A stretch of 64,000 nt of DNA from an uncultured bacterium (GCA_963718515.1 OY970354.1:502808-566807); one strand, 5' to 3'; counted from the first letter of the stretch, positions 4,530-6,156 are shown. Numbers and translations are program-made. Notes: a model not told the origin generated them from the letters alone.

Positions 4530-6075
4530 TAATCAGAGGATTTGATCCTGGTCCAGAATGAACGCTGGCGGTGTGGATAAGGCATGCAAGTCGAGCGGGA
4601 TTGATTTTGAAAGTGTTGCGATTACATCAAGGCACCGGAAGGATCAATTTAGCGGCGAACGAGTTAGTAACACCCTGGTACGTACCTCGAAGACGGGGAT
4701 AGCTCATCGAAAGGTGAGGTAATACCCGATATTGTCGCAAGACGAAAGGCGCAAGCCGCTTTGAGATCGGCCTAGGTCCGATCAGCTAGTTGGTAAGGTA
4801 ACGGCTTACCAAGGCTATGACCGGTAGGGGAGGTGAGAGCCTGACCCCCAACGACGAGACTGAGACACGGCTCGTACTCCTACGGGAGGCAGCAGTCGAG
4901 AATATTCGACAATGGGCGAAAGCCTGATCGAGCGACACCGCGTGCAGGATGAAGGCCTTCGGGTCGTAAACTGCGGTAGTATGGTAAGAATGCAAATGAC
5001 TGTCATACGGAAAGAGGTGGGTAACTACGTGCCAGCACCAGCGGTAATACGTAGACCTCAAGCGTTATTCGGATTTATTGGGCGTAAAGAGCATGTAGGA
5101 GGTTTTGCGCGTCTTTTGTTAAAGCCCAGGGCCTAACCCTGGAAGTGCAGGAGATACGGCAGAACTAGAGGAGGTTAGAGGTGCATGGAACTCACGGTGT
5201 AGGGGTGAAATCCGTTGATATCGTGGGGAACACCAAAGGCGAAGGCAGTGCACTGGGACCTTCCTGACTCTGAGATGCGAAAGCGTGGGGAGCAAAAAGG
5301 ATTAGATACCCTTGTAGTCCACGCCCTAAACGATGCCTGTTTGCTGTTTCGAGTATCGACCCTCGGAGTGGCGTAGCTAACGCGTTAAACAGGCCGCCTG
5401 GGAAGTACGGCCGCAAGGCTAAAACTCAAAGGAATAGACGGGGACTCGCACAAGCGGTGGAACATGAGGTTTAATTCGATCAGTAAGCGAGGAACCTTAC
5501 CAGGGTTAGAAATCTATGATGACAGCCGGCGGAAACGTTGGCCTTCTCACAAGGACATTATGGACAGGTGCTGCATGGTTGTCGTCAGCTCGTGCTTTGA
5601 AGTGTTCCCTTAAGTGGGGTAACGAGCGCAACCCCTATTACGCGTTACATGTGTCGCGTGAAACTGCCCCGCACTAAAGTTCGTGAACGTGAGTTCGCAT
5701 GTATATTTCAGTGCTGGGAGGAAGGAGGGGATGACGTCAAATCCGCATGGCCCTTTGATACCCTGGGCTACACTCGTGTTACAATGGTCGGGACAATGGG
5801 TTGCCAACCCGTAAGGGGGAGCTAATCCCATCAAACCCGGCCCCAGTTCGGATTGAGGGCTGAAACCTGCCCTCATGAAGCCGGAATCGCTAGTAATCGC
5901 AGATCAGCCACGCTGCGGTGAATACGTTCTCGAGTCCTGTACTCACTGCCCGTCAAGCCAAGGGAGCCGGTAATAGGTGAAATTTCGCTTCGGTGGAATA
6001 AACTTAAGATCGGTAACATGGGCTAAGTCGTAACAAGGCACGCGTAGCGGAAGCTGTGCGTGGATCAATTAAACT
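4530..6075 (+). rRNA. rrs: 16S ribosomal RNA (ends approximate, +/-10 nt)
   Basis: Landmarks: AGAGGATTTGATCCTGGTCCAGAATGAACGCTGGCGG at the 5' end, ACTCCTACGGGAGGCAGCAG, GTGCCAGCACCAGCGGTAATAC, GGATTAGATACCC, AAGTCGTAACAAGG, and GGATCA at 6062-6067. No tRNA, 23S or 5S follows. Confidence 0.9.
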
Positions 6076-6156
6076 AATATATAAAAATTTATTTTTATAT
6101 AGTCGAACTTTCTTCTCTTTGGCCAGCGATCGATCGCAGGCGAAAGCGAGGGAGGT

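Follow-up and report, generated by a model that had tools for sequence, protein, structure and literature searches.

How does a ribosome select start codons when its 16S rRNA ends without an anti-Shine–Dalgarno sequence? Pairing between the Shine–Dalgarno (SD) sequence and the anti-SD sequence CCUCC is the textbook rule of bacterial start-site selection. A 16S rRNA gene that raises this question lies in a 64,000-nucleotide stretch of DNA from an uncultured bacterium (GCA_963718515.1 OY970354.1:502808-566807; hereafter, the window means this whole 64-kb stretch). We consider it very probable that the gene encodes a functional 16S rRNA of a member of the Paceibacteria, in which a conserved A/U tail replaces CCUCC, and that initiation in this organism is SD-free and largely leaderless, from extended −10 promoters. 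The gene and the elements at its 3′ end are as follows.

4530–6075, plus strand: full-length 16S rRNA gene of the Paceibacteria/Parcubacteria type with no 23S rRNA gene after it (RF00177 match, relatives)
6039–6062, plus strand: helix 45 with a GGAA loop, E. coli 1506–1529 (all pairs standard in the cmscan alignment)
6062–6067, plus strand: GGAUCA, E. coli 1529–1534, the last canonical element (alignment of the 3′ end)
6068–6076, plus strand: replacement tail AUUAAACUA, with AUUAA at the CCUCC positions 1535–1539 (cmscan alignment, relatives)

The match to RF00177 in the Rfam scan (1351.9 bits, the gathering score being 50) covers model positions 1–1533 at 4530–6075 on the plus strand. E. coli numbers are our own count back from A1542, and the count is checked by the GGAA loop falling on A1518/A1519. 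A preliminary description of the window had regarded the gene as otherwise complete, and this view stands, as the 5′ AGAGGATTTGATCCTGG, AAGTCGTAACAAGG at 6025–6038, helix 45, and GGATCA at 6062–6067 are all present and the model is matched from end to end. Across 90 relatives, the stem of helix 45 covaries and its loop is invariant. Directly after GGAUCA, AUUAAACU at 6068–6075 is aligned opposite CCUCCUUu of the model, i.e., in place of CCUCCUUA. A string search from 4530 to 6179 finds CCTCC neither in the whole 16S rRNA gene nor in 6062–6179. The gene differs from the Bacteroidota type, in which the anti-SD is kept in the 16S rRNA yet is unused or sequestered, in that CCUCC is absent. A 16S rRNA gene without an anti-SD is a genuine feature of this locus, the motif being absent rather than displaced.

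Several other features of the gene should be noted. The strand of the decoding center at 5933–5950 reads UGUACUCACUGCCCGUCA, which corresponds to A1396U and C1400U in our numbering; this signature is also found in lineages with canonical tails among the matches listed, where it served as the search criterion. In the 530-loop pseudoknot (5030–5060), we read a compensatory G524C/C507G change, which in our reading counts for the integrity of the gene, and the 515F primer site is also broken. Compared with the Rfam model, the gene has two expansions specific to the lineage, a 35-nt insertion at 4601–4640, in the first variable hairpin, and a stretch of about 45 nt at 5671–5720 (gcactaaagttcgtgaacgtgagttcgcatgtatatttcagtgc). 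The only other RNA genes that Rfam finds in the 64 kb are three tRNAs, without 23S or 5S rRNA genes. After the solitary 16S rRNA gene come a response-regulator gene, rplS, and tRNA-Leu, and in most related loci the 16S rRNA gene likewise stands alone within its 8-kb block.

Relatives were collected by scanning one genome per GTDB species for the UGUACUCACUGCCCGUCA signature flanked by universal sequence, giving at least 119 loci (numbered with an L below). Most listed loci with a named lineage belong to metagenome-assembled genomes (MAGs) of Patescibacteria, Parcubacteria, or Paceibacterota. The named lineages among the matches listed include Jorgensen-, Lipton-, Nomura-, Yonath-, Vogel-, and Campbellbacteria and 'Minisyncoccia', and a number of these matches are labeled Saccharibacteria or Gammaproteobacteria. 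Over the whole gene, the nearest 16S sequences among the matches listed are those of L083 (96.3% identity), L072 and L038 (both 95.8%), and L028 (95.1%), the first three being Paceibacterota MAGs; the nearest named relatives in the same set are Lipton- and Jorgensenbacteria and Paceibacterota MAGs. In a neighbor-joining tree computed without the tail columns, the window is nested within the best 16S matches, which are MAGs of Paceibacterota, Parcubacteria, and Minisyncoccia. Since its nearest 16S relatives are Paceibacterota/Parcubacteria, the host is a bacterium of the candidate phyla radiation (CPR) belonging to the class Paceibacteria.

Among the matches listed, 111 have readable 3′ ends, and 98 of these lack CCUCC, while 11 carry GGAUCACCUCCUUUCU and two are intermediate (UCUCC). 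The tail of the window (GGATCAATTAAAC; GATCAATTAAAC) recurs without any change in at least 24 species-level genomes from unrelated studies and assemblers. These genomes share 86–96% 16S identity with the window where enough of the gene is present (among the matches listed). In the tree, the window lies inside a clade that uniformly has its tail, a second large clade has GGAUUAAUUCAAU, and the canonical tails form a separate group with 72–79% 16S identity to the window. Sibling genomes, in which the preliminary description had seen a possible source of contrary evidence, show the tail of the window and not GGATCACCTCCTT among the matches listed, with no canonical tail among them. A scan of metagenomes for the exact helix 45 of the window followed by CCTCC gave 13 contigs. 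Eleven of them are only 72–76% identical in 16S (at least 650 nt aligned) and therefore represent distant lineages sharing the helix-45 sequence, and the other two contain too little 16S; no sibling with a canonical tail is demonstrated among the 13. The odd tail is a trait of the clade and not an error.

Other 3′ ends also deserve attention. In the second clade lacking the anti-SD (e.g., L020, L027, L021, and L040), the tail is GGAUUAAUUCAAUGUGAA, GGAUUAAUUCCAAAUUGGAA, or GGAUUAAUUCAAUUUGAA, and these tails form a mini-hairpin from U1537, with an inserted C–G pair in some lineages. In loci that keep the anti-SD (L002, L006, L015, L039, L046, L081, L096, and L119), AGGGAG or AAGGAG comes immediately after CCUCCUUUCU and can fold back onto the anti-SD in the precursor, and those genomes show no SD enrichment upstream of genes. 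The 16S rRNA gene of L119, a relative with a canonical tail, contains a group I intron at 608–896 (RF00028, 91.5 bits).

The recurrence of the tail bears directly on whether the locus is an artefact or a dead copy (from mis-assembly, sequencing error, a chimera, or a pseudogene), with the working ribosome having a normal anti-SD. The window has a raised load of indels and frameshifts. At least four genes are split, namely those for the response regulator (6218–6600, with an extra G in CTTGGACAAA near 6440), FtsW (42632–43746), a VirD4/TraG-like ATPase (48279–49980), and DnaX (61113–62148), suggesting long-read indel errors or pseudogenes in the assembly. In addition, just one rrs is visible in the Rfam scan of the 64 kb. 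However, the difference in the tail is a multi-base substitution and not an indel, the same tail stands in at least 24 independently assembled species-level genomes, with related tails bringing the listed matches to 98 of 111, the 16S score is that of a full-length gene with helix 45 and the processing stem intact, and no contig with CCTCC is proven to come from a close relative. Because a five-base substitution recurs in dozens of genomes, neither indel errors nor pseudogenes can produce the tail, and we regard an artefact as extremely improbable.

The replacement sequence is itself conserved. A core, GAUYAAUU, is common to the related non-canonical tails of Paceibacteria/Parcubacteria and spans relatives down to about 72% 16S identity. 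In 90 distinct non-canonical sequences compared at E. coli positions, position 1535 is A in 87%, 1536 and 1537 are each U in 98%, 1538 is A or C, 1539 is A in 74%, and 1540 is A in 87%. The information content is at most 0.6 bit from position 1541 on and at most 0.3 bit a few bases further, reaching background after about 1542. The conservation thus stops where the mature 16S rRNA of E. coli ends, suggesting that the mature 3′ end lies near 6075–6076 and that the tail is under purifying selection. The tail is not merely degenerate, since it is the replacement sequence that is conserved.

The tail is followed by a trailer that leads to the processing stem of the precursor, with the following elements.

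4419–4441, plus strand: 5′ strand of the pre-16S processing stem, pairing with 6157–6179
6078–6101, plus strand: hairpin consisting only of A and U in the 3′ trailer (10-bp stem, −4.5 kcal/mol)
6102–6106, plus strand: GUCGA box in the 3′ trailer, the commonest 5-mer of the 100-nt trailers
6157–6179, plus strand: 3′ strand of the processing stem (TTGGGACAACTAAAAAGCTCT), whose sequence is kept in relatives down to about 87% 16S identity

The 23-bp processing stem and the A/T palindrome named in the preliminary description are both real: the former has 22 Watson–Crick pairs and one G–U pair and extends to about 32 bp (duplex −42.4 kcal/mol), and the latter folds as the 10-bp hairpin. In relatives, the order is the tail, a hairpin whose sequence differs from species to species, GUCGA, and the conserved 3′ strand of the processing stem. 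At this place, a hairpin unrelated in sequence is found in eleven relatives, whereas L057, L116, and L084 lack the hairpin. The distance between the conserved tail and the stem is only 9 nt (GTCGATAAA) in L116, so there is no space for a relocated anti-SD. A displaced anti-SD, or an insertion after GGAUCA, is ruled out by this spacer and by the lack of CCTCC up to the stem, in keeping with the earlier statement that the motif is absent rather than moved. GTCGA is present within 100 nt after the 16S rRNA gene in 66 of 108 loci, as compared with about 9% expected, alike for canonical and non-canonical tails, and usually stands directly after the hairpin of variable sequence; we know of no explanation for this box. 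A pairing between the tail and the 5′ leader of the 16S rRNA was also considered and rejected. The leader of the window has UUUAAU just before AGAGGAUUUGAUCC, relatives have UUUUUAUC or other U-rich sequences, and no covariation with the tail is found; moreover, the 5′ leaders of canonical-tail lineages are similarly U-rich.

These features raise the possibility that the tail, the hairpin, and GUCGA are only signals for 3′ maturation of pre-16S rRNA or for assembly and have no role in initiation. The end of conservation at the expected mature end is consistent with such a role, as are the hairpin of variable sequence and GUCGA in most relatives, the latter also with canonical tails. On the other hand, no covariation of the tail with the 5′ leader was found, and the hairpin is dispensable in three relatives. 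A role in biogenesis is, moreover, compatible with SD-free, leaderless initiation and not opposed to it. As the sole explanation we find it doubtful, though it deserves to be kept in view.

With the anti-SD absent, the upstream regions of genes come into question. Genes were called crudely, as long open reading frames (ORFs) taken greedily with the first start codon, and the procedure was calibrated on 49 kb of E. coli. The SD words GGAG, GAGG, and AGGA occur at −18 to −4 in 7.7% of the 65 window genes and in 9.3% of control ATGs, whereas the same caller finds 44% against 8.4% in the E. coli stretch. GGAGG and AGGAG precede none of the window genes (about 0.9 and 0.8 expected, respectively), and the upstream regions are depleted in G and rich in A/T. 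Among the clade loci listed, 457 genes adjoining non-canonical 16S rRNA genes give 11.2% against 9.9%. The near absence of SD motifs reported for the window in the preliminary description is borne out, with no enrichment seen in the genes of the window and the clade. Canonical-tail Patescibacteria, in small samples, give similar values (10.2% against 10.7% for 49 genes and 11% against 8.5% for 36 genes). In the clade's 'other' gene class, AGGAG is found 24 times, where 7.5 are expected, and is concentrated in no tail class; with overall SD rates near background, we take this excess as weak noise.

The conservation of the tail suggests a function, which might be pairing of a re-tuned kind, with AAUUAAACUA still recruiting mRNA via an A/U-rich SD substitute (UUUAAUU-like) or a downstream box. 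TTTAA, TTAAT, and TTAA are indeed among the enriched words before operon-internal starts in the raw counts. This raw enrichment is attributable to upstream TAA stop codons and general A/T richness, and it disappears against composition-matched controls. Upstream 5-mers complementary to the tail are found in 50 genes, compared with 54.4 ± 5.6 in shuffles, with no positional peak, and 6-mers in 12, compared with 16 ± 3.5. Duplex energies of upstream regions with AAUUAAACUA equal those of controls, and no downstream-box signal is seen in +4 to +33, nor within the first 30 bases of the coding sequence. A pairing between the new tail and upstream regions or first codons is therefore rejected for lack of enrichment over composition-matched controls. 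Surveys of other organisms without an anti-SD also revealed no matching variant SD (PMC6107228). Re-tuned pairing is thus very unlikely.

What the upstream regions do contain is promoter boxes. In the window, 23 boxes matching TATAAT at five or more of six positions end 4–12 nt before start codons, against 2.55 expected, with a peak at 6–7 nt, and the column profile upstream of the window genes has T at −12, A at −11, and T at −7. In 585 genes of the clade, a spacer of 6 nt is found for 44 boxes against 4.2 expected, and spacers of 7–9 nt for 19–23 boxes each against about 4. Extended −10 boxes (TGnTAnAAT) stand 6–9 nt before ATG and are about tenfold over expectation at 6 nt. In the alignment of 108 boxes, T (64) and G (61) are found at the positions of TGn, which the filter does not select. 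The start codon is ATG in 100 of the 108 boxed genes, and a box precedes 9.8% of ATG candidate starts, as compared with 1.5% of GTG and 1.2% of TTG. In the E. coli stretch, the same method gives 0% boxes at leaderless spacing. Representative cases are listed below.

6203–6220, plus strand: response-regulator gene with the extended −10 box TGTTAAAAT, 6 nt, and ATG; predicted leaderless (sequence, relatives)
22178–22195, plus strand: DUF763 gene with TATAAT, 6 nt, and ATG, the box lying inside an 18-nt intergenic gap (sequence)
27701–27719, minus strand: gene for a 520-residue efflux-adaptor-like protein with TGGTATACT, 7 nt, and ATG (same start on an independent Logan assembly)
54669–54688, minus strand: secD promoter with TGCTATAAT, 8 nt, and ATG (sequence)
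57652–57695, minus strand: rpsB (uS2) with TTGACT, 16 nt including TGT, TATACT, 7 nt, and ATG; predicted leaderless (sequence)

The A of the ATG is at 6218, 22193, 27703, 54671, and 57654, respectively. The first gene after the processing stem in L116, L084, L089, and L103 also has TAnAAT, 6–7 nt, and ATG, the sequences otherwise differing. This gene encodes a response regulator in the window and L116, and TGn precedes the box in the window, L089, and L103. Many boxes lie in gaps of 9–36 nt or within the final part of the gene upstream, and closely packed genes therefore often seem to own a promoter. Other neighboring genes overlap by 4 or 1 nt or are 1–5 nt apart. Such short gaps and overlaps are compatible with termination–reinitiation coupling, though with a similar spacing in E. 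coli they prove nothing. With a leaderless promoter, the transcription start lies about 7 nt beyond the −10 hexamer and coincides with the A of AUG. The spacing of the boxes is the signature of such mRNAs, and leaderless transcription is predicted here in silico.

The same upstream regions could be read differently, as leaders of SD-less mRNAs like those of Bacteroidota, which would be unstructured and A/U-rich and act with protein S1, the TATAAT-like words being a ribosome-loading sequence. In favor of this reading, the upstream regions are rich in A/T and poor in G, a good box at leaderless spacing is missing from more than half of the genes, and the mode is used by Flavobacteriia in which the anti-SD has been lost (PMC3457768). 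However, the signal peaks sharply at 6 nt instead of being a diffuse A/U richness, its T-A...T pattern is that of a −10 hexamer and is accompanied by the unselected upstream TGn, a −35 element (TTGACT) at a 16-nt spacing accompanies it in some cases such as rpsB, and it is specific to ATG starts. These observations make such leaders an unlikely explanation of the boxes.

The following course of events would account for the observations under SD-free, largely leaderless initiation. A conserved A/U tail, GGAUCA-AUUAAACUA in the window and GAUYAAUU across the clade, would long ago have taken the place of CCUCC, so that the ribosome would be unable to choose starts by SD pairing. Most promoters would be of the extended −10 type and end 6–9 nt before AUG, and transcripts would start at or next to the start codon. 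The 5′-terminal AUG would then be recognized by initiator tRNA, IF2, and the ribosome. Where a gene has no promoter of its own, overlaps or very short gaps probably couple its start to the upstream stop codon. The boxes are also seen in canonical-tail relatives (10% against 2%, n = 49; 8% against 3%, n = 36). Since these Patescibacteria are equally poor in SD motifs and have the promoter signal, SD-independent initiation is probably older than the change of the tail; SD use would probably have been negligible already in the ancestor, leaving the tail free to change. The same order of events has been argued for Flavobacteriia (PMC3457768).

Several points weigh against this proposal. Canonical-tail relatives share both the scarcity of SD motifs and the promoter signal, so the leaderless architecture alone does not explain the change of the tail. 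That the new tail is so strongly conserved is not expected under a model of pure loss of function. Only about 20–30% of gene calls have a 5/6 box at the right spacing. The calls follow a crude longest-ORF rule and the window holds at least four broken genes, so some start codons are wrong. The count of rrs covers the 64-kb window alone, and a second copy outside it is possible. Finally, both leaderless transcription and the mature 3′ end are deduced from nucleotide sequence. A more specific proposal, which we put forward only tentatively and consider rather improbable as it stands, is that the tail GAUYAAUU(A/C)AA is a selected functional element of a distinct initiation mode, serving leaderless or 70S-type initiation or subunit maturation, with genes transcribed singly from extended −10 promoters as leaderless mRNAs.

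The preliminary description had called anti-SD loss rare. This is right among cultured bacteria only; within Parcubacteria, most members of a large subclade share it, as already published (PMC9297842, PMC10783764). In the first of these papers, Tsurumaki et al. 2022 (RNA 28:1041, PMC9297842), only 48% of the 16S rRNA genes of Parcubacteria have a detected CCTCCT, the lineages without it overlap the group lacking uL1, bS21 is often absent, and the losses of ribosomal proteins in CPR bacteria are likened to mitoribosomes. No rplK–rplA region was found in the 64-kb window. In the 2024 survey (PMC10783764), Wolfebacteria, Campbellbacteria, SR1, and Peribacter are SD-scarce without CCUCC, and class iv ('SD-scarce lacking a conserved CCUCC') includes Wolfe- and Campbellbacteria. 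The window shares lineage and trait with the anti-SD-less Parcubacteria of these papers, and as the loss is already published for about half of Parcubacteria, it is one more member of a known group. What the accessible parts of both papers record is the absence of the motif, and the replacement tail, the anatomy of the trailer, and leaderless promoters are not described there; the word 'leaderless' does not occur in the accessible text of PMC9297842. In the searchable literature, which leaves subscription-only papers outside, we found neither a link between leaderless mRNAs and translation in Parcubacteria/Patescibacteria nor a conserved replacement tail.

Loss of the anti-SD is also described in insect endosymbionts (Carsonella, Sulcia, and Hodgkinia), haemotropic Mycoplasma, and Flavobacteriia (Lim et al. 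2012, PMC3457768; Amin et al. 2018, PMC6107228). Like those genomes, the window has no CCUCC, no SD enrichment, and no compensating variant SD. However, symbiont tails vary even between strains (UCUCU and UUUCU in Sulcia, PMC3457768), whereas the tail of the window is constant over 86–96% 16S identity, and the G+C content of the window is about 50%, unlike the A/T-collapsed genomes of symbionts. Flavobacteriia have an A-rich leader, whereas the window has a −10 box at leaderless spacing. In this respect it resembles leaderless-rich bacteria (Actinobacteria, e.g., Mycobacterium, and Deinococcus-Thermus), in which a sigma-70 −10 box likewise lies about 7 nt before AUG and is specific to AUG. Those bacteria keep a canonical anti-SD and use SD sequences for led and internal genes, whereas in the window the anti-SD is gone and no SD signal is left. 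The absence of an anti-SD is combined with leaderless mRNAs in Nanoarchaeia, according to PMC10783764. The likeness of the window to Nanoarchaeota and other leaderless archaea, and to mitochondrial ribosomes, is functional only, since domain or organelle, promoters, and initiation factors differ.

A species-rich environmental clade of ultra-small Parcubacteria, which includes the window, has abandoned SD pairing without the extreme A/T bias or the tiny genome of insect symbionts. If the tail is indeed a selected element of a distinct initiation mode and not debris, the anti-SD-less Paceibacteria would be the first large non-endosymbiotic bacterial clade to translate essentially without mRNA–rRNA pairing. 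Gene callers that rely on SD sequences will misplace starts here, and the usable signal is the −10 box 6–9 nt upstream. The conserved tail and the promoter-at-start architecture together provide a concrete, testable model of a bacterial ribosome without an anti-SD. The first co-cultures of Paceibacteria, with Minisyncoccus, reportedly now exist, so the model is open to testing.

Two other regions of the window should be mentioned. A gene for an RF1-type release factor at 2060–2806 on the minus strand has PKT and GGQ motifs and matches only PCRF 97–194 plus the RF-1 domain; it is without the N-terminal domain 1, and no RF-like frame is found upstream. At 29411–33671, five adjacent haem genes encode HemC, HemD, a protein of the chlorite-dismutase family (HemQ-like), HemE, and ferrochelatase. 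The cluster looks like a coproporphyrin-dependent route, which is unexpected in a Patescibacterium of reduced metabolism.

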